A stretch of DNA of 64,000 bases from positions 55,596-119,595 of the forward strand of contig CAVJWC010000001.1 of the NCBI GenBank assembly GCA_963653425.1. The letters are read 5' to 3'. Source of the DNA: Eubacterium sp. (GTDB lineage Bacteria; Bacillota; Clostridia; Christensenellales; CAG-314). Shown piece by piece: positions 5,316-61,700 of the stretch. The position numbers and the translations under genes are program-made. The notes beneath the pieces were generated by a model that saw only the letters and a program-made list of their open reading frames with translations, searched no databases and had not been told where the DNA came from. Position 1 is the first letter of the stretch; each line of letters opens with the position of its first letter.

Positions 5316-5617
5316 AAACGAAAACAATATATAAAAATATACAGATTTTTCAAAAATGTCTTAATAGTCGTTCCGTCGGTTATTGCGGGTTATTTATGTA
5401 TTAAAAGCGTTTATTGCCGTAACCTGCGATAAATAACGTAACGAAAGTAATGCTTCGGGGGGGAGTGTAATCACATGCAGGATGAGTGTAAGATTCTGTC
5501 TTACATATGGCATAGGTGTAGACTTTGAGTTATTCCTCACGTAGTTTTATCCGCAGATTGTTTTATGCGTTGCGGATGACTGATTAAAAATAAGATTTTT
5601 TATCTCGGGAGATTAAA

Positions 5618-7468
5618 ATGAAATATACGGAAATTGAATTAAGAGAAAAAACTTTAACCGAACTCAGAAAAATAGGCGGTTCCGTTGGCGTTGCCAAATA
5701 CAGCAGAAAGCAGGCGGAAGAACTTATCAGCCTTATTCTTGCCATTCAGGAAGGCGAGGTAGAACCTGCCGTTATGAAACGCGGACGTCCGAGGAAAGAC
5801 GCTCATTCTCAGTCGGACTTTTTGCAGGAACAGAAAAAAGAGAGTAGAAAATCGGTTGCGGAAGTTTCTCAGCCCGTACAGAGAGTTACGGTCTATCCGA
5901 CCAAGCCTCAGATTCGCGATTTTACCGAAGAAAATCAGAGAAGAAACGAAGGCTGTATAGATTTCAGAAACAACGGCGAGAACGGCGGAAATTACCAGAA
6001 CCGTCAGAAAGTCGGCTCTTACGACGATTACGTAAATTCGCGGATAGTTCAGCCCAAACAGCCTAAAAGAGATCCTCTCCGTCAGAAATCTTCGGGCGAC
6101 TGGAAAATCAAAACTCCCGATGGAACTGAAAAAACCGTTGCCGAGCAGACGGACAGAAGTCAGAACGTTCAGGACGGCATAAAGAACTTCGACGTCGCGG
6201 ACGGTTATCAGAATCCCGCCAAGTCCGATAATTACGAAGGTCAATCCGTATCTTACGGCGAAGAGAGTTGGAGAGAGAGCAGAAAGCCGATAAAATACGA
6301 AGAATCTTTTGACGTTCAGCAGGATTTCGACGTTTCGGGAATAGTAGAAGTAATGCCCGACGGATACGGCCTTTTAAGAACGGTAAACTATTATCCGTCC
6401 GACGCAGACGTTTATATTCCCGCAATGCAGATCAAGCGTTTCCAGCTCAGAAACGGCGATAAACTTAACGTCCGCGCAAGACCTTTCCCCAACAACAGAT
6501 ACCCTTCGGCTATATTCATTTACTCAATCAACGACGTTCCCTGCGATCAGCTTACCGCACGCGTGAATTTCGAAGATCTGACGCCCATATATCCGATGGA
6601 AAGAATAAGACTTGAAGACGGTCAGCATCAGTTCGACGTGGCTTTAAGAGCGATAGACCTCGTTTCTCCCATAGGAAGAGGACAGAGAGGACTTATCGTT
6701 TCTCCGCCAAAGGCAGGTAAGACGGTTCTTTTGAAGAGCATAGCTCAGGCAATACTCAGAAACTACGACGATATTCACGTTATCATACTTCTCGTGGACG
6801 AGCGCCCGGAAGAAGTCACGGATATAAGAGAAAGCGTAGACGGAGCGGAGATAGTTTATTCCACCTTCGATATGACTCCCGAACACCACACGAAAGTTGC
6901 CGAACTCGTAATGCAGAGAGCAAAGAGAATGGTGGAAATCGGAAAGCACGTGGTTATATTGCTCGACAGTATCACTCGTCTTTCGAGGGCTTACAATCAG
7001 GTTACCGAACAGACGGGAAAGACTCTTACGGGCGGTCTTGACAGCGCGGCGCTTTACGAACCCAAGAGATTCTTCGGCGCGGCAAGAAACATCAAGGGCG
7101 GAGGAAGCCTTACCGTTATAGCGACGGCTCTCGTGGATACGGGAAGCAAGATGGACGATATAATCTACGAAGAATTCAAAGGCACGGGCAATATGGAAAT
7201 TCACCTGAGCAGAAAGATGTCCGAAAGAAGAATTTTCCCGGCAATCGACCTGAATAAGAGCGGAACGCGCAGAGAGGAATTGCTTCTTAACGCCAACGAA
7301 CAGGAAGGAATGTGGATTTTAAGACGTATTCTTTCCAAAGCCGACAACGCCGACGCAACCGAAAAGATTCTGGATATGCTTCTTGCAACCAAAACCAACG
7401 AGGAATTCCTCGAATACGTCCGTTCAAAAATCGGTACGAAGCAAAACAAACCCAATCCTACGCTATAA
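5618..7468 (+). CDS. rho: transcription termination factor Rho with ~190-aa N-terminal insertion domain
   Basis: Rho_N helix bundle (aa 1-45), CSD-like [14 protein letters not shown] at aa 241, Walker A SPPKAGKT, Rho C-terminal ATPase motifs. 616 aa against about 420 for minimal Rho. Confidence 0.95.
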
Positions 7469-7573
7469 ACTTACAGCGTAAAATATGACGCTATAAACTT
7501 ATAGTGCAGAATATGACGATAGATAATGAAACTATAATTCCCTACAGGGCTTTCAGCCCAAACACCGACCCAA

Positions 7574-7607
7574 AACCGCAACGCCCGAAATCGTTGCGGT
7601 TTTTTTT
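7574..7607 (+). terminator. intrinsic terminator downstream of rho
   Basis: AACCGCAACG-cccgaaat-CGTTGCGGTT followed by TTTTTTT. Confidence 0.85.
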
Positions 7608-7681
7608 GCCGAATTCAGACTTTTATTTGCGTTTGTTCTTTCCGCATTTTTCAGGAAATTTGCGGAAAAAAGCTATTTCTG

Positions 7682-7710
7682 TTGCATTATTTTTTGATTT
7701 ATGATATTAT
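7682..7710 (+). promoter_or_regulatory. sigmaA-type promoter for the heptad-repeat protein gene
   Basis: TTGCAT (7682-7687), 17 nt spacer, TATTAT (7705-7710). This implies a ~170-nt leader. Confidence 0.5.
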
Positions 7711-7890
7711 ATAGGTCATACGGAGAGGTATCCGTAAAAGGGTTGACGTTTCGGGCTTTTATCCGATTGTTTTCAGGCGCGTCGCGCGCCGGACGTTATA
7801 CCGTCGCATTTGGGGGAAGAACGGCGGAATATCGGTAAAATTACGGACAGGGCTATACAGCGAAACGTCTCATGGAAATGAGGATTAAAA

Positions 7891-11832: not shown

Positions 11833-12438
11833 TTACCAGTTAAACTGACGGATGCTTCCAACGACTTTACCTATAACCGAAATGTTTTCCGAGAATTCCA
11901 TATCGGCGTACTTTGGGTTTTCCGCGTGCAGAGTAACGTGGTCGTCGTGATAAAAAATGCGTTTTACGGTAACGTCGCCGTCGATGTAAGCCACGACGAT
12001 GTCGCCGTTTTTAGTGGAGCTGTCGCTGTCCACGATAATAAAATCGTCGTTGAAAATGCCCGCGCCTATCATACTGTCACCGCTGACTCTCAGAAGGAAA
12101 AGATTGTCTCCGCGGAAGATATTCCCGGGGAGAGAATAAAACTCTTCTATGTTTTCCGCCGCAAATATAGGCAGACCTGCGCTGACTCGTCCGAGTAAAG
12201 GAAATTTTCGTGTGTTCGTCGGAATTTCGGAATTTTTAAGGCTCAAAGAACGGTTGATGTTGTTCTTTTTGGAAATCTTTCCCATCTTTTCGAGCTTATT
12301 GAAATAATACTGAACGGTAGCGGTGGAGTTAAACCCCATGTTCTTCATAATATCTCTTACCGTAGGAGCGTAACCGTTTTTTTCTATAAAATCCTGAATG
12401 CGGAGAAGGACTTCTTCCGATTTATCCGAGCGTGACAT
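11833..12438 (-). CDS. lexA: LexA repressor
   Basis: 201 aa. Winged-helix N-terminus (IQDFIEKNGYAPTVRDI), S24 peptidase C-terminus with GDSM and VKR motifs. Confidence 0.93.
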   Translation of the reverse strand: MSRSDKSEEVLLRIQDFIEKNGYAPTVRDIMKNMGFNSTATVQYYFNKLEKMGKISKKNNINRSLSLKNSEIPTNTRKFPLLGRVSAGLPIFAAENIEEFYSLPGNIFRGDNLFLLRVSGDSMIGAGIFNDDFIIVDSDSSTKNGDIVVAYIDGDVTVKRIFYHDDHVTLHAENPKYADMEFSENISVIGKVVGSIRQFNW

Positions 12439-12501
12439 TTTCTACCTCCTTTCATTATCCCCGATTATTTGCAGTCAATCAATATAAAAACCGAAAGTTC
12501 G

Positions 12502-13003
12502 GCGTTTCGTTCGTTCTTAGCGATATTTTACGGAAATCGATCGGCATATTCGCCCTTAAACTTTTTCCCGATTCCCGTATACGATCCGTATAAAAACTGA
12601 ACGCCTACCGATTTTATACATTATACACTAATATTCCCGAACTGGCAAGCGTTTTTTTATGGCTAAAAACGTTTGTTTAATAAATTGGTCTTTGCGTTCC
12701 GTTTATTATCCCTGATTATCTTACGGAAACAAATCGGTTTAGCCTTCGTTTTACTCCCTCTTACGTATATAAAGTACGCCCTCAGCTCAAAGCTTCGGTT
12801 AAACTACCCACCAATGTGGCGATTTCTTCCGCGTAAAAACGCTACGCGCCACAGTTGCATATTTTTAGCGAATTAAAAGCGGTTACTGTGCTAATCGGCA
12901 ATAACGAATGTTGCGCTTAGCGTTCCGTTCGCAACACTCGTATTTTTTACGGAAACAAATCGGTTTAGCCGTGGTTACTATGCCAATCGGCGATAACGAA
13001 TGT
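12502..13003. repeat. composite intergenic repeat (three A units, two B units)
   Basis: A1 12694-12744 and A2 12920-12970 share an identical 10 bp (GCGTTCCGTT) and an identical 24 bp (TTACGGAAACAAATCGGTTTAGCC) around unrelated 17-bp cores. A3 12502-12544 is a degenerate copy. B1 12879-12911 and B2 12971-13003 are 29/33 identical. Confidence 0.85.
12620..12648 (-). promoter_or_regulatory. sigmaA-type promoter upstream of lexA
   Basis: Minus strand: TTGCCA (12648-12643), 17 nt spacer, TATAAT (12625-12620). About 180 nt upstream of the lexA ATG. Confidence 0.45.
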
Positions 13004-13017
13004 AATACCAACCGTTT

Positions 13018-14304
13018 TTATTCTTCGTTTGTTTTATCGGGCAGGAATATCTTTTTCTCGCCGTTATCCGGATAAGCCGAATATTCTTTCAGAAATTTTT
13101 CCGAGATAACGCAGTTGTAGACCACGCCGTCGCTAAGGACTTCGCGTTTGATTATAACGGCGTTTTTTTCTATCGAAGCAAGAGCCTTTCCGTCGGTAAA
13201 AGGAATTTTAAGTCTGCAATTTACCGATTCTCCGAAAAGAGCCGTTTCTATGCGTTTTTTCAGCGTAGTAAAACCCGTTTTTGTTTTTGCGGAAACGAGA
13301 AGCATATCCGAAGAAAAATATCTTTCTATAGCCGTTCTGTCTATGAGGTCGCATTTATTGAAAACCGTTATAACGGGAGCTTTACATCCGAGAGATTCAA
13401 GCGTTTTAAGAGTTACTTCTATGTGAGCTTCGTGATTTATATCGGAAACGTCGCATACGTTGAGAATAAGGTCGGCGTAAAGAGCTTCTTCGAGAGTGGA
13501 GCGGAAGGACGCTATTAAATCGGTGGGAATGTTTCTTATAAAACCTACCGTATCTATAACCACGGCAAAAGATCCGTTGTCGAAATCCAATTTTCTTGCC
13601 GACGGATCGAGAGTCGCGAAAAGCTGATCGGCTACGAAAACGTCCGACGACGTGAGAGCGTTCAGAAGAGAGGACTTACCCGCGTTCGTGTAACCCACGA
13701 GAGCCACGCAGGGAATATTGTTTCTGACGCGTCTTTTACGATGGTTATCGCGCGTTTTCTCCATTTCGTCGATACGGTTTTCGAGAACGGAAATTCTTTT
13801 TCTTATATAACGTTTGTCCGTTTCGAGTTTGGTTTCGCCCGGACCTCTCGTGCCTATGCCTCCGCCGAGACGGGAAAGTTCTTTTCTCGAACCTATAAGA
13901 CGGGGAAGGTTGTATTTCATCTGCGCGAGTTCGACCTGAAGTTTTCCTTCCGAGCTTTTTGCGCGCGAAGCGAATATATCGAGAATAAGCGCCGTTCTGT
14001 CGATTACTTTACAGTCTATGACTTTACTTACTTCCGCAATCTGAGAGGGCGTGAGTTCGTTTTCGAAAATAACCGCGTCTATATCGAGATTTTCCGCGTA
14101 ATGCGCGACTTCTTCGAGTTTTCCGCTTCCGAGTACGGTCTGGGGATCTATGCTGTTTCGTTTCTGAATGACCGTTTCTATAACTTCTCCGCCCGCGCTT
14201 TCCACGAGACTCGTGAGTTCGTCGAGAATATACTTTACGTCTTCGTTGTCTTTATATACGTAAACGAGAAGAACCCGTTCTTTTTCGTGCGTTGTTTCAT
14301 TCAT
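13018..14304 (-). CDS. hflX: GTPase HflX
   Basis: 428 aa. HflX N-domain followed by a G-domain with GYTNAGKSSLLNALT (G1), DTVGF (G3), NKCD (G4). Confidence 0.93.
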   Translation of the reverse strand: MNETTHEKERVLLVYVYKDNEDVKYILDELTSLVESAGGEVIETVIQKRNSIDPQTVLGSGKLEEVAHYAENLDIDAVIFENELTPSQIAEVSKVIDCKVIDRTALILDIFASRAKSSEGKLQVELAQMKYNLPRLIGSRKELSRLGGGIGTRGPGETKLETDKRYIRKRISVLENRIDEMEKTRDNHRKRRVRNNIPCVALVGYTNAGKSSLLNALTSSDVFVADQLFATLDPSARKLDFDNGSFAVVIDTVGFIRNIPTDLIASFRSTLEEALYADLILNVCDVSDINHEAHIEVTLKTLESLGCKAPVITVFNKCDLIDRTAIERYFSSDMLLVSAKTKTGFTTLKKRIETALFGESVNCRLKIPFTDGKALASIEKNAVIIKREVLSDGVVYNCVISEKFLKEYSAYPDNGEKKIFLPDKTNEE

Positions 14305-15385
14305 CTTTTTTGTCGTCGTCCTCCGTTTTTCTGTGAAGTTTGACTTTGTCCGAAGCTTTTTTCCTTATGTCGTCGGTAATCGCAGCGTAGTGCTTTTTCG
14401 TGGTGTTTACGTCTCTGTGTCCAAGAACGTCCGCCACGACGTAAATATCTCCCGTTTCGCGGTAAAGTTCCGTGCCGTAAGTGCTTCTCAGTTTATGCGG
14501 TGTGATTTTTTTAAGAGGAACGCTTAATCGGGAGTATTTTTTTACCAGAAGTTCTATAGAGCGCGCGGAAAGTCTTTCTTTACTCTTTGAAAGAAAGAGA
14601 GCGCGTTGGTTTTTATCTACTTCTTCGTCGGAAAGTCTTGCGTCTATATAGGGCATAAGAGCTTCTGCGACTTCTTCCGAAAAATAAAGAATAACCCGAT
14701 TTCCGCCCTTTCTCGTTACGACGAAAGAGTTATCTGTGAAGTTTATATCGTCCACGTTAAGTCCCACGCATTCGCTTATACGGATACCCGTGCCGAGAAG
14801 CAGAGTAACTATAGCCGTGTCGCGAAGTTTGTTTTTATCGTGAAAGGCTTTCTGATGTTTTGTCATTCCGCAGCCCGTTTCCACCGTTTCGAGAAAGTCG
14901 GAAATCTCGTTTCCTTTAAGTCTTATAATCTCTTTCTCGTGAATCTTGGGCGTGCTTACTTTGGAGGCTGCGTTATGAGAAATGTAGTCGTTTTTATACA
15001 GGAAATTCATAAGCGCGCGTATCGAAGAAAGCTTTCTTGCCTTTCCTTTTTCGCTGTTTTTCTGAACTTCGTCGTCTTTTTCGTATATCGAAACGTAACT
15101 TAAAAAGCATTCGATTTCAAATGCGGTTATGGTTTCCATATCCCTGAAACCGAACTTTTTTACGTCGTAATCGTTGAATCTGTCTATATTCCTTATGCAA
15201 TAATCGAAAAAGACTCTCAGGTCGTAAGCGTAATTCAGCCGAGTGAGCATAGTCGTGCGGTTTTCTATCGCAACGAAAAATTGCAGACAAAAGGCAGGCA
15301 GGTCGTTTTTAATAACGTAATCCAGCCTTTGTTTGTTTATAACGTCTCTTTGTTTGAAATAGTCGTTTCCGATGTTTTTATCCAT
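14297..15385 (-). CDS. tyrosine recombinase, XerC/XerD family
   Basis: 362 aa. C-terminal HKLRSTYGTELY...LGHRDVNTTKKHY (R..H-x-x-R..Y catalytic pattern). 8-nt overlap with hflX. RBS AAGAGG. Confidence 0.85.
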   Translation of the reverse strand: MDKNIGNDYFKQRDVINKQRLDYVIKNDLPAFCLQFFVAIENRTTMLTRLNYAYDLRVFFDYCIRNIDRFNDYDVKKFGFRDMETITAFEIECFLSYVSIYEKDDEVQKNSEKGKARKLSSIRALMNFLYKNDYISHNAASKVSTPKIHEKEIIRLKGNEISDFLETVETGCGMTKHQKAFHDKNKLRDTAIVTLLLGTGIRISECVGLNVDDINFTDNSFVVTRKGGNRVILYFSEEVAEALMPYIDARLSDEEVDKNQRALFLSKSKERLSARSIELLVKKYSRLSVPLKKITPHKLRSTYGTELYRETGDIYVVADVLGHRDVNTTKKHYAAITDDIRKKASDKVKLHRKTEDDDKKDE

Positions 15386-15671: not shown

Positions 15672-16523
15672 TCAGCTATTGTTTTCCTGTTCAGAAGAGT
15701 CGCTTTCCGCGTCGTCTTTCTTCTTTTTACGCTTCTTGTTTTTGACGTGGTCGCCTTCGAGAAGAAGCTTGTCCGCAAGGAGAGCGATGAATTCGCCGTT
15801 AGTCGGTTTTTCGTTTGCCGAATAGACTTTAACTCCGAAAAGAGAATTTATGTTTTCTATCTTACCGCGATTCCAGGCAACTTCGATTGCGTGACGAATG
15901 GCGCGTTCCACTTTACTGCTCGAAGTTTCGAAATCTTCGGCTATCGACGGGTAAAGCTCTTTGGTTATGTTGTTGATAATAGGCGGGTTTTCGACGGCTA
16001 ATTTTATCCCTGCCCGCAGGTAATGATACCCTTTTATGTGCGCGGGAATTCCGACGCTTATAAATACCGACGTTATTCTTTCGTCGATGGAACGGTTCCT
16101 GTATCTGAAAGAATTTTCCGCGCTTGCCGTGGTTATGGGAGAGGGCGGACTGGTGCGGAAGGAAGGTCCCTGAATTTTTTCGAGAATAACCGACGGATGA
16201 CAGGGTTTTATGAAGCAATATTCCGCGCCCGAAGCAAAGGCTTCCGAAATAATTTTACCCGCGCTTAAAGATGTGAGAACGTAAAACGACGGAGCAATTT
16301 CCTGTAAATCACTGCTTTTGCGGATAAAAGTTATTCCGTCCATCACGGGAAGAATAAGATCGGTTATAACTACGTCGATATGCTGTCTGGACATAAAATC
16401 CAACGCGGCTTGCCCGTCGCTTACGCAGTCTACGGAAGAAAAATATTCCGAACCTGACATATAATCTACGAGCTGAGTTGTTTCCGGACTGTTTTCCTGG
16501 ATTACCAAAAGGGTAGGCTTCAT
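15672..16523 (-). CDS. spo0A: sporulation master regulator Spo0A
   Basis: 283 aa. Receiver domain (VVITDLILPVMDG, IKP) plus the Spo0A-specific C-domain (GIPAHIKGYHYLRAGIKLAV...SKVERAIRHAIEVAW). RBS AAGGAGA. Confidence 0.95.
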   Translation of the reverse strand: MKPTLLVIQENSPETTQLVDYMSGSEYFSSVDCVSDGQAALDFMSRQHIDVVITDLILPVMDGITFIRKSSDLQEIAPSFYVLTSLSAGKIISEAFASGAEYCFIKPCHPSVILEKIQGPSFRTSPPSPITTASAENSFRYRNRSIDERITSVFISVGIPAHIKGYHYLRAGIKLAVENPPIINNITKELYPSIAEDFETSSSKVERAIRHAIEVAWNRGKIENINSLFGVKVYSANEKPTNGEFIALLADKLLLEGDHVKNKKRKKKKDDAESDSSEQENNS

Positions 16524-31069: not shown

Positions 31070-31304
31070 AAGTAAAGAAAGTTAAACCGACCTTTCCGTT
31101 CATTATCCGAGCGGTAAGCGTAGGTAAAGAACATTGCGCCTTACGTTCCGTTCGTTACAGGGAACGCCGTAAAGCGGGAAGGAAAGAAGGTTTCGCTTTC
31201 TCAAAGAAAATCAGCGCGGAATTTAATAAAGAGATTAAAGCCCTTTACGGACAAAAAGGTTGATTTGCACAAACAAAAACGACGGGTATTCAACCATAAA
31301 TCTA

Positions 31305-31333
31305 TTGACAATTTTCAGGCGCGATGATATAAT
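31305..31333 (+). promoter_or_regulatory. consensus sigmaA promoter for the ferredoxin gene
   Basis: TTGACA (31305-31310), 17 nt spacer, TATAAT (31328-31333). Confidence 0.7.
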
Positions 31334-31379
31334 GACGATAGCACGAAAAGTGCAAAAAAGTATAAGGAGAATATGAAAA

Positions 31380-31550
31380 ATGCCTCACAAAATCGGAGAT
31401 GAATGTATTAAATGCGGTTCTTGCGCAGCTACCTGCCCCATCGGATGTATTTCCGAAGGCGACGATAAGTACGTTATCGACGCTTCTCAGTGCGTAGATT
31501 GCGGTGCTTGCGCAGCTCAGTGCCCTGTGAATGCAATAACAGGTGAATAA
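31380..31550 (+). CDS. 2x[4Fe-4S] clostridial-type ferredoxin (56 aa; missing from the ORF track)
   Basis: My translation is MPHKIGDECIKCGSCAATCPIGCISEGDDKYVIDASQCVDCGACAAQCPVNAITGE*. It has two CxxCxxCxxxCP motifs. RBS AAGGAGA lies 9 nt upstream, with a consensus promoter before it and hairpins after it. Confidence 0.9.
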   Translation: MPHKIGDECIKCGSCAATCPIGCISEGDDKYVIDASQCVDCGACAAQCPVNAITGE

Positions 31551-31561
31551 TAATTGCAGAA

Positions 31562-31614
31562 AACAAAGTTAAACTTTGTTGAAGGTTGCCCGATACCCGT
31601 TCGGGCGACCTTTA
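31562..31614 (+). terminator. tandem hairpins / terminator after the ferredoxin gene
   Basis: AACAAAGT-ta-ACTTTGTT, then GGTTGCCCGA-tacccgt-TCGGGCGACC followed by TTT. This overlaps the TTG start given in the ORF track for the next gene. Confidence 0.6.
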
Positions 31615-42250: not shown

Positions 42251-42425
42251 AAGTTCAATTTATATAGCGAGTAGTAAAACAAGAGCGCTTTAAGCATAAA
42301 TTTATAAACCGAAAACGAGAAAATTCGTCGCGCGGAAAACGTCCGCACGGCGTTTTTTATTGCTTGCGGTATAAAAACGGCGATAACGGCAATGCTTTTT
42401 CCGAGAACTGTTTAAGGAGAAGAAA

Positions 42426-43222: not shown

Positions 43223-43251
43223 GAATAATTATCGCAAACGGTTGCACACTA
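43223..43251 (+). promoter_or_regulatory. candidate forespore (sigmaG/sigmaF-type) promoter of spoIVB
   Basis: GAATA (43223-43227), 17 nt spacer, CACACTA (43245-43251), against my recollection of the sigmaG consensus GHATR-N17/18-CATxxTA. 39 nt upstream of the ATG at 43290. Confidence 0.35.
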
Positions 43252-43289
43252 AGAGAGAAATATCAGCCTGCGGGCTATTGAGAGGTACT

Positions 43290-44408
43290 ATGAAAAAACC
43301 TATATTGGCGGTGATTCTTCTTGTGTTGCTCGGCTCGGCTTTGAGCGCAGTATTTTGCCCGTTCAAAGCCGTTCTGACGTCTGCCGAGCAGTACGATTGT
43401 TCTTTATCGGACAACGAAAACCTTTACGCGTCGGGCGAAACCATTATAGATAAGATCGGTCAGGCTATCTTTAAGGGTAAAACCGTCGTCGGCGAAGTTC
43501 GTCTGGGAGGAATTCCTATCGGGATAAGTCTCGAATCGAGCGGAGTAAAAGTTATCGGAATAAGCGAAATAATGACGAAAAACGGCGTTCAGTGTCCAGC
43601 GATAGAGTCGGATATAAGAATAGGCGACGTGATAATCGGAGCTGACGGCGTTGAAATAAACAGTTCTCTTCGTTTAAGTCAGCTGGTCTTAGAAAGCAAC
43701 GGAGAGGAGATCGAACTTGAAATTATACGGGGAGAAAAACTAAAAAAGAAAATAAAACCGCTTTACGACGAACTTAGCGGAAAATACAAACTCGGACTCT
43801 GGACGAAAGAGGGCAGTAGCGGAATAGGCACGCTGACGTTTGTAAAAGAAGACGGACGGTTCGCGTCTTTGGGGCATCCGATAGTCAATCCCGAAACGGG
43901 AGAGATATATAAAATCAGCGGAGGAAGCGTTTATAAGTGCGTGATAACGGGAGCCGTAAAAGGCGGAAGAGGCAGAGCCGGAGAACTCAGAGGCGATTTT
44001 AAGGACGTGAAACTCGGAACGGTTTCTTCCAACGGGAAAATCGGCGTTTACGGAACGTTTACAAACCGTGACTATCTTAGTTATCCCAAGATAAAGATTC
44101 TTTCGTCCAAGTCGGTAAAACCAGGGAAAGCCTACGTTTATTCTACCGTGGAAGGCGAAAAGCCCGAACTATACGAAGCCGAAATAATCAAAGCTTCCGT
44201 TCAGAGCGGAGAAAGCGACAAAGGAATAGTCGTAAGAATTACCGATAAAAGACTTATCGAAAAGACGGGCGGTATCGTTCAGGGAATGAGCGGAAGTCCC
44301 ATTATTCAGGAAGGTTGTCTCGTCGGCGCGGTAACTCACGTTTTCGTAAGCGACGGAGTGAAGGGATACGGAGTTTACGCCGAATTTATGTACGACAAAC
44401 TGAAATAA
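43290..44408 (+). CDS. spoIVB: SpoIVB peptidase (S55)
   Basis: Signal-anchor, PDZ (IRIGDVIIGADGVEI), S55 motifs GTLTFV...SLGHPI and GMSGSPII. The ATG at 43290 (RBS GAGAGG) is preferred over the track start at 43242. Confidence 0.93.
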   Translation: MKKPILAVILLVLLGSALSAVFCPFKAVLTSAEQYDCSLSDNENLYASGETIIDKIGQAIFKGKTVVGEVRLGGIPIGISLESSGVKVIGISEIMTKNGVQCPAIESDIRIGDVIIGADGVEINSSLRLSQLVLESNGEEIELEIIRGEKLKKKIKPLYDELSGKYKLGLWTKEGSSGIGTLTFVKEDGRFASLGHPIVNPETGEIYKISGGSVYKCVITGAVKGGRGRAGELRGDFKDVKLGTVSSNGKIGVYGTFTNRDYLSYPKIKILSSKSVKPGKAYVYSTVEGEKPELYEAEIIKASVQSGESDKGIVVRITDKRLIEKTGGIVQGMSGSPIIQEGCLVGAVTHVFVSDGVKGYGVYAEFMYDKLK

Positions 44409-45877: not shown

Positions 45878-46008
45878 CTTTTCGTCTCCTTTTCGGGTAG
45901 AATTTTATTGCTTGTCGCCGTTTAGTAAAAGTTTTTTTGGCTTTTACGGAACTTTCCTCGTTCGTTGCTATGCGGAAAGTTTTTCCCGTTCGTTGCCGCT
46001 TGGTAATT

Positions 46009-48133: not shown

Positions 48134-48192
48134 TTATTCCCTTAAATACCGGAGAAAACGAATTGTTCCCTCAAAATATCGGGGATAACGAA
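48134..48192. repeat. tandem 29/30-bp repeat downstream of degV
   Basis: TTATTCCCTTAAATACCGGAGAAAACGAA / TTGTTCCCTCAAAATATCGGGGATAACGAA. The ATCGGgGATAACGAA part resembles the B units at 12879-13003. Confidence 0.8.
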
Positions 48193-48257
48193 AGAAATAG
48201 CCTTTAATTATTTATAAATTCCGATAGTCTTGTTTTTTAGGAGAGAACAATTTTATT

Positions 48258-53059: not shown

Positions 53060-53143
53060 TGGTGCGGCGAGTGGGACTTGAACCCACACGGGGTTACCAT
53101 GCGCCCCTTAAACGCACGCGTCTGCCGATTCCGCCATCGCCGC
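53060..53143 (-). tRNA. tRNA-Leu (class II), anticodon AAG by hand folding
   Basis: 84 nt with encoded CCA. Acceptor GCGGCGA/UCGCCGC, D-arm GCGGAAUCGGCAGACGC, anticodon stem UGCGU/GCGCA, loop UUAAGGG, 12-nt variable region, T-arm GUGGG-UUCAAGU-CCCAC. It aligns with E. coli tRNA-Leu(CAG) as I recall that sequence. Confidence 0.85.
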
Positions 53144-54095: not shown

Positions 54096-54317
54096 AAAAT
54101 TCTCCGTATTTTCGCCGTTATCTTATAGCATAAAGCCGTGTTTTTGTCAAGACTTTTAAGTGCGCGTTACCTTCTTTATCGCCGATATTTTTACGGGAAT
54201 AAATCGTTTTTTTGTTTTTACCGTGCTTAAAATCGACGCAACACGCCAATAATCCTTTTATATCGACGGAGCTTTCGTTCGTCGGTACCGTATAATAAAA
54301 ACACTGCGGAGGTACTT

Positions 54318-54626
54318 ATGGAAATATCGTATAAAAAGGACAGAAGCGTTCTTATTATGTACTTCAAAGGCGAACTCGACGAATGTGCTTCTTACGCCGC
54401 CAAACAGACCATGGAAGCCATTATATTCGCCAATAGTTTCAGAACTCTGATTCTCGACCTTAAAGATCTGACTTTTATGGACAGTACGGGAATAGGCGTT
54501 CTTATAGGACGATACAAACAGCTGAAAATTCGCGGAATAAGCGCGTATAGCGTCAACGTAGGCGAAAACGCCGATAAAATATTCAGAATGTCGGGATTAT
54601 ACGATATATTCCCCCTTCTCGATTAA
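54318..54626 (+). CDS. spoIIAA: anti-sigma-F factor antagonist SpoIIAA (STAS)
   Basis: 102 aa STAS domain with DLKDLTFMDSTGIGVLIG (phosphorylatable Ser). First gene of the spoIIA operon. Confidence 0.93.
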   Translation: MEISYKKDRSVLIMYFKGELDECASYAAKQTMEAIIFANSFRTLILDLKDLTFMDSTGIGVLIGRYKQLKIRGISAYSVNVGENADKIFRMSGLYDIFPLLD

Positions 54627-54641
54627 AGCGGAGAAAAGAAG

Positions 54642-55085
54642 ATGAAATCAGACGAAATGACGTTAAAAATCAATGCAAATCCACTTAACGAAAGCTTTGC
54701 GAGAAGTACGGTAGCGGCGTTTTGCGCGAGACTTAATCCTACCGTCGAGGAAATAGGCGATATAAAAACCGCCGTCAGCGAAGCCGTTACAAACTGCGTG
54801 GTTCACGCCTACGATTATGCGGGCGGAGAAATAGAAATAACCACTCTTCTGTGTAAAGGGTGCGTTTTTATTACCGTTTCGGACAAAGGAAAGGGCATAA
54901 AAGACGTGGAAGCCGCTATGCAACCCTTTTATACCACGGGTAATTCCGACGAGCGTTCGGGAATGGGATTTACCGTCATGGCGGCTTTTACCGACGAACT
55001 TACCGTGCGTTCCGAACCTCAGAAGGGTACGGTCGTAAAGATGAAAAAATACCTCAAATCGCCTGCGGAGAAGGAGCGATGCTGA
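54642..55085 (+). CDS. spoIIAB: anti-sigma-F factor SpoIIAB (Ser kinase)
   Basis: 147 aa HATPase_c: EAVTNCVVHAY, DKGKGI, GMGFTVM. Confidence 0.93.
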   Translation: MKSDEMTLKINANPLNESFARSTVAAFCARLNPTVEEIGDIKTAVSEAVTNCVVHAYDYAGGEIEITTLLCKGCVFITVSDKGKGIKDVEAAMQPFYTTGNSDERSGMGFTVMAAFTDELTVRSEPQKGTVVKMKKYLKSPAEKERC

Positions 55086-55804
55086 ATCACGACGAAACCA
55101 TGGAGCTTTTATATAAAGCCAAAGACGGAAGCGAAGAAGCCAAAGAAAAGCTTATTTCCGAGAACAGACCGCTTATTAAAAGTCTTATAAGGAGATACGC
55201 GGGACGGGGAGTGGAATACGAAGACCTTATGCAGATAGCTTCGGTAGGTCTTCTTAAAGCCGTTTCCAACTTCAACGGCGACTATAACGTAAGATTTTCC
55301 ACCTACGCCGTTCCTATGATTCTCGGCGAGGTCAAAAGGTTCATCCGCGACGACGGAAGCATAAAGGTTTCACGGTCGGTAAAAACCCTTTCGTGCAGAA
55401 TTTACCGTTATATCGAACGTTGCCGTATGAACGGAGAAAAAGATCCTTCGATTTCCGAAATCGCCGAATATTTCGGAGTAACGGAAAACGACGTCGTTTT
55501 TGCGATGGATTCGAGGAAAGAACCCGTTTCGCTGTTCGAAAAAACCGACGACGGCGACGAACAGGGAACTTCCCTTATCGACAGACTGGGAGACGGTTTC
55601 CGCGAAGACAAGCTCATAAATAAAGTTATATTAAAATCCCTAATAGAAGAGCTTTCACCGAGAGAAAAGAAAATAATTCTTCTTCGGTTTTACAGAGATA
55701 TGACGCAAAGCGAAATCGCGCGTCTTCTCGGAGTATCTCAGGTTCAGGTATCCAGACTGGAAAACAAAATAATAGAAAAACTTCGCTCGGGAATGAAAGA
55801 ATGA
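55079..55804 (+). CDS. sigF: sporulation sigma factor SigF
   Basis: 241 aa. Sigma-70 regions 2-4 (YEDLMQIASVGLLKAVSNF, FSTYAVPMILGEVKRFIRD, MTQSEIARLLGVSQVQVSRLE). Overlaps the spoIIAB stop. Confidence 0.93.
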   Translation: MLNHDETMELLYKAKDGSEEAKEKLISENRPLIKSLIRRYAGRGVEYEDLMQIASVGLLKAVSNFNGDYNVRFSTYAVPMILGEVKRFIRDDGSIKVSRSVKTLSCRIYRYIERCRMNGEKDPSISEIAEYFGVTENDVVFAMDSRKEPVSLFEKTDDGDEQGTSLIDRLGDGFREDKLINKVILKSLIEELSPREKKIILLRFYRDMTQSEIARLLGVSQVQVSRLENKIIEKLRSGMKE

Positions 55805-55811
55805 ATGCAAA

Positions 55812-55846
55812 CCGCCTGATAAAAGACGATCGGGCGGTTTATTTTT
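55812..55846 (+). terminator. intrinsic terminator after sigF
   Basis: CCGCCTGAT-aaaagacg-ATCGGGCGG followed by TTTATTTTT. Confidence 0.75.
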
Positions 55847-55865
55847 CGTCCGTTTGCCCATAATA
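55837..55865 (+). promoter_or_regulatory. candidate sigmaG-type promoter for spoVA genes
   Basis: GTTTA (55837-55841), 17 nt spacer, CATAATA (55859-55865). The -10 matches the sigmaG CATxxTA pattern as I recall it. Confidence 0.35.
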
Positions 55866-56000
55866 ATAAAAACGAAAAAAGCGGAGGAAAAGGCGTGAAA
55901 GAAACTTATAAAGAAAGAACGAATATATACAGGGATTTCGAGAAAAACGCGGACGTCAGGGAAACCCGGTATAAAGAGCGCGCTGAAAAGGATATAAGAA

Positions 56001-56564
56001 ATGAAAGATAAAGCTCGGCTCGGAAAACGCGGAACGAATAGGGAGGACGATAAAGGCAGATACAAAAACGCTTGCGTAAAAGGGAAAGACGACAGCGTTA
56101 AAACGCGGGGAAGGGATTTCCCCGTCATAAACGAAGACAACTACAAAGACTACGTTTCAGCGGTTTCGCCCAAGTCGAGGCATTTCAGGAACATAGTCTG
56201 GGCTTTTTTAGTCGGCGGAAGCATTTGTCTTTTGGGACAGGCAATAATCGAAATCTTCGTTTCGTTCGGATTTCCCCGTGAAGATTCCCAAGGCTTTGCG
56301 TCGTGTATTCTGGTAATTCTTGCCGCAATTGCCACGGGTGCTGGCGTTTACGACAGGCTGGGAAGATTTGCCGGCGCAGGTTCTACCATTCCCATAACGG
56401 GCTTTTCCAACGCCGTTGTCGCGCCCGCTCTCGAATATCGTTGCGAAGGAATGATATACGGCATAGGAACGAGAATGTTTTTCGTTGCCGGTCCCGTAAT
56501 CGTAAACGGAGTCACGGCAGCCATTATCGTTGCGCTTATAAAGTGGCTTTTTCGCGGACTTTAA
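56001..56564 (+). CDS. spoVAC: SpoVAC with about 40-aa basic N-terminal extension
   Basis: The core ...NIVWAFLVGGSICLLGQ...GAGSTIPITGFSNAV... is canonical SpoVAC. The only in-frame ATG/GTG/TTG upstream of the core is the ATG at 56001. Confidence 0.85.
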   Translation: MKDKARLGKRGTNREDDKGRYKNACVKGKDDSVKTRGRDFPVINEDNYKDYVSAVSPKSRHFRNIVWAFLVGGSICLLGQAIIEIFVSFGFPREDSQGFASCILVILAAIATGAGVYDRLGRFAGAGSTIPITGFSNAVVAPALEYRCEGMIYGIGTRMFFVAGPVIVNGVTAAIIVALIKWLFRGL

Positions 56565-56575
56565 TCGGAGGTAAG

Positions 56576-57610
56576 ATGTCAGGGAGCAGAGGACAGTGTT
56601 TGTTTTTTAACGGCGTTTATATAAAGTGCGGATATACCGTCGCGGGGCCCAAGGAGCAGGAAGGAAGACTTCACGACAGATTCGACGAAGCCCTCAGCGA
56701 CGACAGGTGCGGAGAAGCTTCCTTTGAAAAAGCCGAACGCCGTATGTTCAGGGACGCCATAAACGGAGTTGCAAAAAAATCGGGTATAGATATAGACGGC
56801 GTTCAGACGGTCGTAGGCGGAGACCTTCTGAATCAGATAATTTCCACGTCTTTTGCCGTAAAGGGATTGAATTCGACTTTTATAGGTCTGTATAACGCCT
56901 GCGCAACCTTTGCGGAAAGCCTTCTTGTAGGCGGAAGTCTGATTTCGGGCGGATTTAAGGACAACGTCGTTTGTATCGCGGGAAGTCATTTTTCAACGGC
57001 TGAAAGACAGTATCGTTACCCGTTGGAACTCGGCGTTCTTCGTTCGCCCGAAAGTCAGTGGACGGCAACGGGTGTCGGCGCGACTTTACTCGTTAAAGGC
57101 AAAGAAAGAGCCAACGAAAAAGGACGGAAGATTCTCGTTAAAGGCGGAGCTTTCGGCAAAGTTGTGGATTACGGCATAACCGACGTAAACAACATGGGAG
57201 CGGCTATGGCGCCGGCTGCCGCGGATACGCTTATACGTTTTTTTTCCGAAACGGGAACCAAGGCTTGCGATTACGATCTTATTGCGACGGGCGACCTCGG
57301 GTTTCTCGGAATGGAAATAATGATGGACCTTATGGAGAAAAAAGGTTATCCCTTAGGCGAAGAGTATATGGATTGCGGAGCTTCGCTTTATTACGAAAAA
57401 CAACAAACCTATCAGGGAGGAAGCGGAGCCGCGGCTTCGGCTATGGTTTTTAACGGCACGCTTCTCGACAGGCTTTATAAAGGAAGCTTTTCCGATATGC
57501 TTCTCGTGGGAACGGGCGCGCTTATGTCACCGCTTACCTGTTTTCAGGGCGAGAACATCCCCGTTATCGCGCATATCGTGCATATAGGCGCGGACGAATC
57601 TCCGTCGTAA
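56576..57610 (+). CDS. spoVAD: SpoVAD
   Basis: 344 aa thiolase-like fold (...YTVAGPKEQEGRLHDRFDE...SFEKAERRM...). The ATG at 56576 has GGAGGT upstream and follows the spoVAC stop. The longer track ORF from 56303 overlaps spoVAC out of frame. Confidence 0.9.
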   Translation: MSGSRGQCLFFNGVYIKCGYTVAGPKEQEGRLHDRFDEALSDDRCGEASFEKAERRMFRDAINGVAKKSGIDIDGVQTVVGGDLLNQIISTSFAVKGLNSTFIGLYNACATFAESLLVGGSLISGGFKDNVVCIAGSHFSTAERQYRYPLELGVLRSPESQWTATGVGATLLVKGKERANEKGRKILVKGGAFGKVVDYGITDVNNMGAAMAPAAADTLIRFFSETGTKACDYDLIATGDLGFLGMEIMMDLMEKKGYPLGEEYMDCGASLYYEKQQTYQGGSGAAASAMVFNGTLLDRLYKGSFSDMLLVGTGALMSPLTCFQGENIPVIAHIVHIGADESPS

Positions 57611-57814
57611 CGCATCGGTTTCCTTTGTCGCAAAGCCTTAGCGAAAGCCTTTTTGTCTACCCGTTCGCTAAAACTCTTTCAGAGGCGAACGTAAGCCCGT
57701 TGTCTGACGCATTCAAAGCTATTTCCATTAACTAAACGGAGCGTAAAGTCTTCGCGAAAAACGACGAACTCAGCTCAGAAACGAAAACTGTTTGTAATTA
57801 CGAGGAAAACGGTA

Positions 57815-58174
57815 ATGATATATCTCAAAGCTTTTTTAATAGGCGGACTTATCTCTGCCATCGGACAAATTTTAATAAATCTCACTAAACTCACCAACGG
57901 GAAAATTCTCGTTATTTTTCTCGTAAGCGGATGTATTCTCGAAGGCTTAGGACTTTACCAGCCTCTCGTAAAATGGGCGGGAGCGGGGGCGTCCGTGCCT
58001 ATTTCGGGGTTCGGAAGCAGTCTCGTCAAAGGTGCGTACGAAGGAATGGAAAAGGAGGGCGTTTTCGGTCTTATAAAGGGCGGACTTTCGGCAACTTCGG
58101 CGGGCGTGTCGGTAGCGATTTTATTCGGTTACGCCGCGGCTCTTATTTTCAAGCCCAAAACCAAAGCCAATTGA
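57815..58174 (+). CDS. spoVAE: SpoVAE(b)
   Basis: 119 aa, FLIGGLISAIGQ...GAGASVPISGFGSSLVKG (paralogous to SpoVAC). Confidence 0.9.
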   Translation: MIYLKAFLIGGLISAIGQILINLTKLTNGKILVIFLVSGCILEGLGLYQPLVKWAGAGASVPISGFGSSLVKGAYEGMEKEGVFGLIKGGLSATSAGVSVAILFGYAAALIFKPKTKAN

Positions 58175-58334
58175 CTGTTCCGCGCTTTTCTTAATTTCGC
58201 GTAAGCCTCGTTTTCCGCAACGTTTCGCGGAGTTTATGAGGCTGTTACATATAGTTTTAAGCTTATCCGTAAAGGGCGTTTTACGTCGTAAAACGTTAAG
58301 TCTTATTTCTTCGTTCTCTCTATGCCCGAGTTTC

Positions 58335-58535
58335 GCGAGCGGAGCAAACTGCAGACGTGTTTAATGAGCATAGTAAGCAACGCAGGCGATTTCTTATGAG
58401 CCGATAATTAGTCGGCGATTTTCAGCGAGCAAAGTAAGTTGCAGACGATTTTAATGAATGGATTAAGCAACGCAGACGATTTTTAATGAAAGAATAAGTA
58501 ACAGACGATTTTTAAGCAGCAGAGCAAGTACCTCA
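58335..58535. repeat. six-unit degenerate tandem repeat, about 30-bp period
   Basis: The core GCAGACG(A)TTTTAATGA recurs at 58351, 58382, 58412, 58441, 58472 and 58501, each preceded by AAGTAAGCAAC-like sequence. Confidence 0.85.
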
Positions 58536-58551
58536 ATAAAAATCACTATAT

Positions 58552-58577
58552 AAAAAAGGCTCCGCAAATGCGGAGCC
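58552..58577 (-). terminator. intrinsic terminator of the subtilase-LRR gene (possibly bidirectional)
   Basis: GGCTCCGC-attt-GCGGAGCC followed by TTTTTT on the minus strand. Confidence 0.8.
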
Positions 58578-58594
58578 TTCGCCTTTCGGCTTGT

Positions 58595-58706
58595 TTAATC
58601 GTTTGTTTTGCGATTGGCTATTTAATCGCTTTTACGATTGGTTGTTGTTGCTTAATCGCTTGTTTTACGATTTGGTTTTAATTAAATCGCTTATTTTACG
58701 ATTATG
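58595..58706. repeat. four-unit tandem repeat; first unit is the 3' end plus stop of the subtilase gene
   Basis: Plus-strand units TTAATCG(C)TT(G)TTTTACGATTGG start at 58595, 58622, 58652 and 58682 (period 27-30). The unit at 58682-58706 contains codons ...IIVK and the stop. Confidence 0.85.
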
Positions 58707-61700
58707 TTTTTGAAGTAAGTTCTCCAGATGTAGTTGGTGTAAGAAACGTCGCTGCTTACGTAAATCTTAACGCCTTCGTTTCCGTTTGCTTCTTCGATGT
58801 TATTTACGAACTGGTTATAGAGGTATCTTGCGCCGTCTCTGTAATAGCTCTGAAGAACGGGTGCCTTTTCGGATTTGAAGGTGATTTCGGTAAGAGCCGT
58901 GCAACCGAAGAATGCTCCGTCGCCGATATAGCCGAGGCTTTCGGGAAGAACTACGTTCTTAACGGTCGTATTTCCTGCGAAAGCTTCTGCGTCTATCTTA
59001 ACGATTCCTTCGGGAAGAGTTACGTTTGCTTCCGTTCCGAAGTATCTGTAGAGAACGGTCTTGTCTGCGTTATAGAGTCCGTCTTCGAATTCGGTGAGAA
59101 CTTCACAGCCGTTAAGTTCAACGGAAGCAATGTTGGTGGAACCGAAGAATACTCTGGAGAAGTTGAATTCTGCTACGGCTCCGAGCGTTACCTTTTCGAG
59201 GGTTTCTATTGCGCCGAAAGCTTTGTTTCCGAGGTATTCCGCATTGTTTACGGTAACTTCGGTGAGCTTGGTTGCATAGAAAGCGTTGTCGTCGATTTCA
59301 ACGAGATCGTCGCTCAGAACTATTTCTTTAAGTGCCGAGTAAGCGAATGCTTTTTCACCGATGCTCTGAACCGCGGGTAGAACTACCTTTTCGAGGTTGG
59401 GCGCGCCCATAAACGTTCCTGCGGTGATTGCGGTAATGCTTTCGGGCAGTACGAGTTCGGCTACGGTGCTTGCCGTCGGGTAAAGAAGGATAGCCGTTTC
59501 TTCCTTGTTGAAGAGAACGCCTTCTACCGAAGCAAAGTATGCGTTGTTCTCGTGAACGACGATTTCTTCGAGAGCGTCACAGCCCGTGAAGGTTCCGAGC
59601 GCGTCGAAGTAACCGAGTTTTTCGCCGATGTAGAAAGATTTAAGAGAGGTGCAGTATGCGAACGCGTTGTAGCTTTCTCCTTCGAAGCTCATTACCGATT
59701 CGATGGTTTCGAGAGCGGGGAAGTAAACCGATTCGATCTTGTCTGCATAGCAGAAGGAAGAACCGGTGAGAATCTGTACGTTTTCGAGTTCGAGTTCGGT
59801 AAGACCGGAGTTCTTAAACGCGTAGTCGCAGATAACCATTACGTTATCGATACCCGTAATTTCTCTGAGAGCGGGCGTATTGCTGAAAGCTCCCATACCT
59901 ATCGTCTGAGAATCGGTGTTGAGGAAGGTTACCTTTTCGAGTTTTTCGCAGTTTACGAACAGATAAGGCACGTCTGCGGTAATGTACGCAGGAACTTCGA
60001 TTTCAACGAAACCTGTGCCGGAATAGAAGCTTTCGTAAGTTTCCACTTCGACGTTTTCGCCGATAACGATTTCGGTAAGGTTATGGCAGTCCGTCCAGAC
60101 GCCAGAAGCTATTCTCTTGGTGTTTTCGCTCGTTACGAAGCTCGTTATAGCCGTTCCCGCAAGAGACTGCGTTTCGAATACTTCGATGTTTTCGATGTTG
60201 ATTTCTTTAAGGTTGGTGTTTCTGTAGAAGCAATATGCGGGCAAAGTCTTCAGCTGACTTCCGAGTTTAACTCCCTGAAGGAGAGTCTTGTCGTAGTCGG
60301 CAGAAACGAACGTGGATCTGAGATTCCAGTAATAACCTCCGCCGTATTCGCTTTCGGGACGGATACCGTAATCAGGTTTAACGTATTCGGGAACGTATTC
60401 GGGAATGGAGAATGCTCTTTCGTTAAGTTCGGTTATGGTTTCGGGCAGTTCGAGTACGCCGTCATAATCCCATGCAAAGGGCTTATACAGCGTGGTCTTT
60501 TCTGCGTTGTAAACGAGGCCGTTTTCGTCTTTAACGAGTTTGTCGTTACCTTCGAGAACGTTAAATCCGCCTGCAAGCAGATTGCTTCCGCCGAATGCTA
60601 AATTACCGATATAACCGATAGTTCCGCCGAAAGATACGTTGGAAAGCTTGGGACAGTCCGCAAACGCGAAACCGTCAATCATTCCTACGTCTTTTTCGAA
60701 GATAACTTCTTTAAGGCTCATAAGAGAAGAGGTTGCCTGACTGTACTGTTTGGGATAATACGGACCGTTATCCGAAATACCGCCTATACGGGTTACGTTG
60801 CCGTGGAAGACTATTCTTTCGAGCTTATCGCAGAAAGTCAGAGAGTAAGCTACTCCCATAGACGCACTGATGTGGCTTTCGAGAATATTAACGTTACCCA
60901 TAAATTCGACTTCTTTAAGAGAGTCGTTGAACATAACGGAACTCTGCATAAATTCGACGTCGCCGAGGAAGGTTACCTTTTCGAGGTTGGGACATACGGC
61001 TACGGAGAAGCCCAGACTGAGAGCGGTGCTTGCCTTGGGGAAGGTAAGAGTCTTAACGCCGAGACCGTTGAACGAGAAGGCTGCGTTGTTGATGCTGGTG
61101 TTTTCGAGATCGAGAGAGGTAAGCTTGGGAAGCGTACATACGGAAATGCCTTCCAGTCTTTCCAGAGTTGTGGGAAGAATGAGTTCAGTGAGGTTATAAA
61201 GATTCATAATGGAATAACCGTTTATGATCTTAACGCCTTCGGGAAGCACGATCTTGGTGATTCTGCTGTCGCCGTTGAAGACGAACGCGCCTATAGAGGT
61301 AACGCCGTCGGGTACTATAACTTCTCCGCCTTCACCGTTATAAGCCTTAAGAACGCCGTCTTCGATAACGAATTCTTCTGCTTGTTCTTCTTCGTTTTCG
61401 GAATTAACGACTGCGCCGTTCATTGCGACGGAGCTGTCAAAGCTGTTGTAAGTACGTACTTCCGTGTAGGAAGGATCGTTTACGTCGTAGTAAATTACGA
61501 AGTTGTCGGTGCGGTATTTAACTGCAAGAGTGCGGTTGTCGTTGCCAGTAATAACAGCGTTTGCGTTGTTTTCACCGCTATCGGGAAGTTCGATTTCGTA
61601 AACCGAAACGTTTCTTGCGTAGTCCACGAGCTGAACGGCAAAGGTGTTATTTACAACGTTAGCCATATAATCGGTAACGTCTATGGAGTAGGAGTAACTT

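Follow-up and report, generated by a model that had tools for sequence, protein, structure and literature searches.

The spacer between hflX and lexA in this Eubacterium sp. genome is probably an ordinary promoter region that has been swollen about five-fold by short, species-specific, strictly intergenic repeat copies. The repeats in the spacer belong to a family with members in other spacers of the same genome, its location is exclusively intergenic, and it is absent from the relatives examined. In addition, one segment of the spacer is present as two local duplicates (X and Y below), and the lexA promoter is conserved together with a candidate operator.

The window analysed here is a stretch of 64,000 nucleotides. 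It carries lexA (11833-12438) and hflX (13018-14304) on the minus strand, each scoring above the cut-off of its NCBIfam equivalog model, and the 579-bp spacer between them (12439-13017) lies downstream of hflX and upstream of lexA. The gene for an Xer-like tyrosine recombinase (14297-15385) overlaps the start of hflX and is situated two genes upstream, with spo0A beyond it. Sporulation genes occupy 15672-16523, 43242-44408, and 54318-58174 (spo0A, spoIVB, spoIIAA-spoIIAB-sigF, and spoVAC-AD-AEB); the ORF call at 56303-57610 is crude, with spoVAD over-extended across spoVAC. Given this full sporulation gene set in the window, the organism is likely a spore-former.

No terminator was predicted after hflX, Tandem Repeats Finder found nothing, and BLASTN of the spacer against plasmids and phages gave no match. 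When the spacer and the window as a whole were compared with Rfam, both at the gathering threshold and by E-value, only the tRNA-Leu(AAG) at 53060-53143 was returned (47 bits in the E-value scan), which ARAGORN also called; an initial pass at the gathering threshold gave no hit, apparently an inconsistency of the filter. Four other spacers in the window are long (420-800 bp), have no Rfam match, and contain no called gene of at least 80 aa: 1300-2106 (upstream of an Asp23-family gene), 7469-7890, 31070-31585, and 58175-58690. The ORF at 58691-63937 (minus strand) encodes 1748 aa with subtilase S8, PA, and Fn3-like domains and many BspA-type leucine-rich repeats; this large protein is probably a protease or adhesin of the cell surface.

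The gene order recombinase-hflX-lexA-pfkB is kept in two related loci, L053 (82 per cent HflX identity) and L055 (60 per cent), where the hflX-lexA spacer measures 108 and 209 bp, respectively, against 579 bp here. About 75 bp of our spacer aligns with these relatives, conservation being confined to the promoter and an AAAC-N4-GTTT box. The first-pass annotation of this DNA had placed a candidate lexA promoter at 12648-12620, and we agree: on the minus strand this segment reads TTGCCA-17-TATAAT, with 11 of 12 matches, and it is ancestral and kept in both L053 and L055.

The same annotation found no convincing Cheo/SOS box in the region. In Gram-positive bacteria the Cheo-type LexA box is GAAC-N4-GTTC/T and is found near the promoters of SOS genes. 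A plausible box does exist at 12667-12678 on the minus strand, 18 nt upstream of the −35 hexamer of lexA, where the palindromic AAAC-N4-GTTT sequence is AAACAAACGTTT. L053 carries the same box, as the sole RAAC-N4-GTTY match in 9.3 kb, and L055 reads AAACATATGTTT. The box departs at one base from the Clostridial LexA operator type GAACnnnnGTTT, its first base being A, not G, and it is likely to be a LexA operator (SOS box). The C. difficile operators are of the GAACnnnnGTTT type, with AGGAACAAATGTTTGC at C. difficile lexA, and the half-sites of Gram-positive LexA boxes are separated by N4 (PMC4234289). The comparison with relatives pinpoints the regulatory core of lexA as the promoter and this candidate operator. 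Further downstream, in the lexA 5′ UTR, a small hairpin followed by a T-run (GCCGAACTTTCGGT TTTTAT; 12490-12503, minus strand) also contains a GAAC-N4-GTTT box with one mismatch (GAACTTTCGGTT; 12491-12502), and this element might act as a second operator or as an attenuator.

What remains of the spacer falls into two lineage-specific blocks, whose boundaries as insertions relative to L053 are blurred in the alignment. Block 1 (12691-13017, about 327 bp) runs from the hflX stop codon to the box and contains B2, A2, B1, X, unique filler, and A1. Block 2 (approximately 12451-12589, about 140 bp) runs from the transcription start region to the Shine-Dalgarno sequence and contains a 3′-arm fragment, A3, the small hairpin, and a 5′-module copy at the ribosome-binding site. 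The units thus follow one another in the order B2(−), A2(+), B1(−), X(+), A1(+), 3′-arm fragment(−), A3(+), and lexA-RBS copy(+).

The A and B units in block 1 had been described before, and those descriptions were accurate. A1 (12694-12744) and A2 (12920-12970), both on the plus strand, have in common an exact 10-mer (GCGTTCCGTT) and an exact 24-mer (TTACGGAAACAAATCGGTTTAGCC), so that their arms are identical at 34 of 34 positions; no such match arose in 100 shuffles. The 17-bp cores between these arms are unlike, with only five of seventeen positions equal, which is the chance level; that of A2 reads CGCAACACTCGTATTTT. A1 is a complete canonical unit, with a 5′ module, a family-type core, and a 3′ module, and A2 is the start of local duplicate Y. 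B1 (12879-12911; reverse complement ACATTCGTTATTGCCGATTAGCACAGTAACCGC) and B2 (12971-13003; reverse complement GTATTACATTCGTTATCGCCGATTGG) are inverted copies of the 5′ module on the minus strand, and the latter adjoins the hflX stop codon. They are identical at 29 of 33 positions, and all four differences are transitions.

Block 2 carries three further pieces. A3 (12502-12550, plus strand) is a degenerate complete unit within the lexA 5′ UTR, antisense to lexA. The lexA-RBS copy (12446-12485, plus strand; E = 9e-5), which the first-pass annotation lacked, is a 5′ module directly upstream of the lexA Shine-Dalgarno sequence and again antisense to the gene. Between A3 and the promoter, an inverted fragment resembling the 3′ arm (12562-12582, minus strand) can form a 12-bp helix with the 3′ arm of A3 in the lexA 5′ UTR.

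A MAFFT alignment of all candidate pieces gave the consensus GCGTTCCGTTCGTTATCCCCGATTTTTTTACGGAAAYAAATCGGTTT, with units of about 25-50 bp, a 5′ module (GCRTTCCGTTCGTTATCNCCGATT), and a 3′ module (TTTTTACGGRAAYAAATCGKTTT); A1 is near this consensus, its ‘core’ included. Against circularity, we used leave-out nhmmer profiles, in which the copies under test were excluded from the profile. A profile built from A1-A3 only finds 54163-54206 at E = 4.4e-5 and 48159-48195 at E = 0.039. Conversely, a profile built only from these two copies outside the spacer finds A1 (E = 5e-5), A2 (2e-3), A3 (0.016), and the reverse complement of B2 (0.034). A3, previously listed as a degenerate third copy, is therefore recovered as a genuine one by copies from outside the spacer. 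The B units appear to belong to the family on modest scores (leave-out E = 0.034). Block-shuffled windows did not score above about 8 bits.

An iterated profile was then used to search the window and L059, an additional 8.2 kb of same-species DNA just left of the window (given here in its own coordinates), about 72 kb of the genome in all. It returned twelve matches at E < 0.01, all of them intergenic, in six separate spacers; two of the copy-bearing spacers lie in L059, which holds an independent copy at E = 4.5e-5. The total in these 72 kb is at least fourteen units at six to eight loci, and the top marginal matches are likewise intergenic. The suggestion of a dispersed, extragenic, REP/BIME-like family is borne out by these searches, since the leave-out profiles tie the spacer units to other spacers and 12/12 matches are intergenic. 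Extrapolating very roughly from six loci in 72 kb, a genome of 2-3 Mb would hold a couple of hundred loci.

The best copy outside the spacer (54160-54212, plus strand) lies between divergent GNAT and spoIIAA genes. The copy at 48145-48200 (minus strand) lies between convergent degV-like and XRE-family HTH genes and corresponds to a piece noted earlier at 48134-48192, which the profile searches support. A partial copy (42353-42392, minus strand; E = 1.4e-4) is found downstream of an esterase gene; like the copy at 54160-54212, it is additional to the earlier list. Three other pieces on that list fared less well. The one at 31094-31158 is marginal only (5-8 bits, against the shuffle maximum of about 8-10); an intergenic 5′-arm fragment there (ACGTTCCGTTCGTTACA; 31143-31159, plus strand) reaches 8.2 bits, the level of the shuffle maxima. 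No profile supports those at 45947-46003 or 57662-57691. A marginal inverted pair of degenerate units (5370-5457, about 7 bits) lies upstream of rho. The rho gene itself (5618-7468) encodes a 616-aa Rho whose N-terminal and RNA-binding domains are separated by a long insertion, and a Logan contig break falls inside the gene. The genes beside the copies are unrelated in function (esterase, DegV, XRE regulator, GNAT, SpoIIAA, PSP1, and Rho).

The two modules occur in varied combinations. The 5′ module stands alone in B1, B2, the lexA-RBS copy, the copy at 42.3 kb, and L059; 5′ and 3′ modules are joined in A1-A3 and the copies at 54 and 48 kb; and the 3′ fragment at 12562-12582 stands alone. Two elements in L059 are built from inverted family sequences. 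At L059 12845-12903, between divergent acetyl-CoA synthetase-like and thiamine pyrophosphokinase genes, two 5′ modules placed tail to tail form a 59-bp palindrome (CATTCCGTT..ACCGATT..AATCGGT..AACGGAATG) with a fold z-score of −4.36. At L059 10640-10686, an AMP-binding gene ends in an intrinsic terminator whose 12-bp stem (CGGAGATAACGA/TCGTTATCTCCG) is perfect and consists of two inverted family cores. Since the stem arms carry the family core motif, family repeats may seed terminators.

We found no family copies in the relatives, either within 29 kb surrounding their loci or among three contigs of 20 kb each from another relative (81 per cent SigF identity). The orthologous GNAT-spoIIAA spacer in a relative is of equal length and lacks the unit, and its distal part is unalignable, which makes it uninformative about insertion.

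The first-pass annotation had read the A units as invariant arms around unrelated, variable cores. As a design this does not hold, because the family core has its own consensus, CGTTATCNCCGAT, which is common to A1, A3, the 54- and 48-kb copies, the B units, and the lexA-RBS copy; A2 is the sole departure. The A2 core has a counterpart close by. Its segment CGCAACACTCGTAT has a homologue, CGCCACAGTTGCAT, at 12847-12860, within a stretch that we call X (12847-12911, plus strand) and that comprises a degenerate A2 core, a 3′ arm, and a B unit. X aligns with Y (12930-13003) at a local alignment score of 50, compared with 14.6 ± 2.5 (maximum 28) for shuffles. This homology, also missing from the earlier description, indicates that the segment made up of the A2 core, 3′ arm, and B unit was duplicated locally, and with its homologue inside that duplication, the A2 core is not a free variable loop. 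An older third period upstream of X was not significant (score 15, against 12.9 ± 2.2).

The 3′ arm carried by X is decayed, whereas the arms of A2 match A1 at 34 of 34 positions. Simple decay fails to explain such arms around a core with five of seventeen matches, and we assume gene conversion. Recent short-tract homogenization between A1 and A2 is the simplest reading of perfect arms with unlike cores.

The units had also been described as hairpins with partly complementary arms. The complementarity is there but only weak: TTCCGT/ACGGAA pairs over 6 bp, with an additional G-C pair across a bulged A. The hairpins do not stand: taken singly, as single strands, the five A-type units fold like shuffles (z from −0.25 to +0.82), the best fold of A2 lacks the arm-arm stem, and the 5′ module has no internal palindrome. 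Stable folds appear where units are inverted relative to each other or to their surroundings, as in the L059 palindrome and at 12900-12945 (z = −2.81). In the latter, the end of B1 with its linker (ACGAATGTTGCG; 12904-12915) pairs with the A2 core (CGCAACACTCGT; 12930-12941) in a 12-bp stem with one G-T pair. By these predictions, a unit takes part in a stable hairpin only when it lies inverted relative to a second unit or to neighbouring sequence.

These folds bear on the idea that the units are selected structured RNAs, either a pseudoknot of two interleaved stems or UTR structures that tune lexA or hflX. The inverted repeats TTCCGT/ACGGAA and CYGATT/AATCGG are indeed interleaved within the unit, and over five units they are paired in 93 and 79 per cent of cells, respectively. 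One compensatory change is seen, the remaining stem variation is of the G-U type on one strand, and neither pairing nor covariation exceeds that of column shuffles. The lexA 5′ UTR (about 175 nt) has a fold z-score of −2.4, centred on the helix between the A3 arm and the inverted arm fragment, whereas the upstream block is unremarkable on either strand (z = −0.55 and −1.59). In addition, with no terminator predicted for hflX, a hypothetical hflX read-through RNA would allow 13000-12984 (in B2) to pair with 12467-12451, just 5′ of the lexA Shine-Dalgarno sequence, with a predicted summed pair probability of 14.4. Against these points, single units fold like shuffles, units lie in both orientations with respect to transcription, and no Rfam family matches them. 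We regard selection for RNA structure as unlikely.

The identical arms of A1 and A2, with a core free to differ, would also be expected if the units were bound by a protein, whether a global regulator, a nucleoid protein, or LexA (for which they would be decoy operators), and selection kept the arms invariant. When inverted, the conserved operator region AAACAAACGTTTTTAGCC is similar to the 3′ arm AAACAAATCGGTTTAGCC, and the 3′ arms of the 48- and 54-kb copies read GAAC-N5-GTTT and GAAT-N5-GTTT. The half-sites in these arms are N5 or N6 apart, which does not fit the N4 of Gram-positive LexA boxes (PMC4234289). Moreover, copies lie upstream of, downstream of, and between unrelated genes, in both orientations and also as partial modules; the arm in the sister copy X has decayed; and the units are missing in relatives that retain lexA, its promoter, and the box. 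Binding sites are, on this evidence, quite unlikely.

A more specific proposal assigns a function, in place of selfish spread, to the unchanging arms that A1 and A2 have in common and to the inverted 5′ modules at either end of the spacer; we think it very unlikely in either of its forms. In the RNA form, the predicted pairing of B2 just 5′ of the Shine-Dalgarno sequence might block translation of lexA on hflX read-through transcripts, and so from any RNA that did not begin at the gene's own LexA-controlled promoter; if this were true, a domesticated repeat would insulate SOS autoregulation from upstream transcription. In the DNA form, the inverted repeats at the spacer ends might make the lexA promoter invertible.

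It is also conceivable that there is no dispersed family at all, only local duplications in one spacer and chance similarity elsewhere. The strongest identities (A1/A2, B1/B2, and X/Y) are all local, and the pieces at 45.9 and 57.6 kb are not significant. Two scans of sequence collections that do not include the source species likewise gave only single chance matches: 50 in unrelated genomes for the 17-mer TTACGGAAACAAATCGG among genome contigs and 42 for GCATTCCGTTCGTTATA among metagenome contigs. Nevertheless, the reciprocal leave-out matches between the spacer units and 54160-54212 reach about 5e-5, the independent L059 copy is equally strong (E = 4.5e-5), and all significant matches are intergenic. 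A purely local origin is thus highly improbable.

The first-pass annotation had further suggested that the arm-and-core layout resembles recombination or binding sites and had asked about hypervariability of the cores among strains. Wherever they cover the spacer, the three available assemblies of the species, namely the window, GCA_963637745.1 (99.94 per cent identity), and Logan contigs of SRR13434600, do not differ, so we see no hypervariability in this small sample. Two of the SRR13434600 Logan contigs end within the spacer at 12821-12847, with a 27-nt overlap, and not at any A or B unit; coverage, a branch in the assembly graph, or a variant may be the cause. Recombination sites are not suggested by the spacing of the arms, which are 21 bp apart rather than 6-8 bp, and relatives without the repeats have the recombinase gene all the same.

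Least credible is a phase-variable lexA, in which the tyrosine recombinase encoded two genes upstream would flip a promoter segment between the 17-bp repeats at 12451-12467 and 12984-13000: these ends are inverted 5′ modules that bracket the lexA promoter and match at 14 of 17 positions as DNA, and the SRR13434600 contigs do break inside the spacer, but the break lies away from the repeats, all three assemblies show one orientation and identical sequence, neither the opposite orientation nor a product of excision was seen, the recombinase belongs to the Xer-like type and is syntenic in relatives without the repeats, and the repeats are imperfect and simply family units. Several other systems were discarded by inspection or from the gene content: two copies 226 bp apart do not make a CRISPR array, integron attC sites were set aside on inspection, DnaA, parS, Fur, and Zur boxes fit the motif poorly, and the window has no partner gene for a retron, a DGR, or a TnpB omega-RNA.

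Under the reading that we prefer, an ordinary promoter region enlarged by repeat copies, an ancestral promoter and operator region of about 110 bp would have grown to 579 bp by the two lineage-specific blocks. Both would be copies of a short interspersed repeat together with some unique filler, with the A units as complete copies in the plus orientation, the B units as inverted 5′ modules, and a further 5′ module at the lexA ribosome-binding site. Units of this family probably multiplied as neutral or selfish DNA, much as REP/BIME, BOX, or MITE sequences do, with a mobilizing enzyme that would be encoded elsewhere in the genome. Within the spacer, they would then have been amplified by local duplication and homogenized by short-tract gene conversion, which would explain perfect A1 and A2 arms around unrelated cores. 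Any effects on the expression of hflX or lexA would be a by-product, the candidates being structure in the hflX 3′ UTR and the lexA 5′ UTR of about 175 nt.

An oddly long spacer is in this way explained as a local pile-up of a small repeat family, of a sort that is poorly catalogued in this uncultured lineage of Clostridia. When related MAGs are searched for non-coding RNAs or invertible promoters, the family profile can serve to mask these repeats, which may plausibly also account for fragmented assemblies. Should an influence of the units on lexA expression be demonstrated, they would represent a case of repeats rewiring SOS control.

Among known systems, dif, attC, and inverton sites likewise consist of inverted arms on either side of a non-conserved stretch, and here too a gene for a tyrosine recombinase lies close by. 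They differ in having cores of 6-8 bp, against the 21-bp arm spacing here, and the Xer-like recombinase is kept where the repeats are lacking. MITEs such as Correia/NEMIS are likewise small non-coding insertions that enlarge spacers and can lie near promoters and ribosome-binding sites, and the 59-bp element in L059 has inverted ends. A MITE is a defined element with terminal inverted repeats and flanking target-site duplications. In our family, neither a full-length element bounded by terminal inverted repeats nor a parent IS was seen, and the 59-bp element and the copy at 54160-54212 show no visible target-site duplications.

REP/BIME elements are imperfect palindromes of 20-40 nt with a stable stem-loop, present in tens to hundreds of copies per genome, and their cognate RAYT, an IS200/IS605-like TnpA, is flanked by REPs. 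Our units resemble them in being short, strictly extragenic (12/12 matches), spread over many spacers, clustered in alternating orientation as in the hflX-lexA spacer, able to form hairpins as inverted pairs, and lineage-specific. They differ in that a single unit is not a stable imperfect palindrome (the five A-type units fold like shuffles), in having no sequence similarity to REP, and in their host, a Clostridia MAG; no transposase or RAYT gene was found among the proteins of the window. BOX elements of Streptococcus pneumoniae, together with RUP and SPRITE, share with the family an intergenic, non-coding, and species-restricted character. The modules of our family are shorter than theirs and have no homology to them, and a repeated central module was not seen. 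As in BOX, RUP, and SPRITE, the 5′ and 3′ modules are separable and are found together, alone, or inverted. Overall, the units form a short mosaic intergenic repeat family like REP/BIME or BOX.
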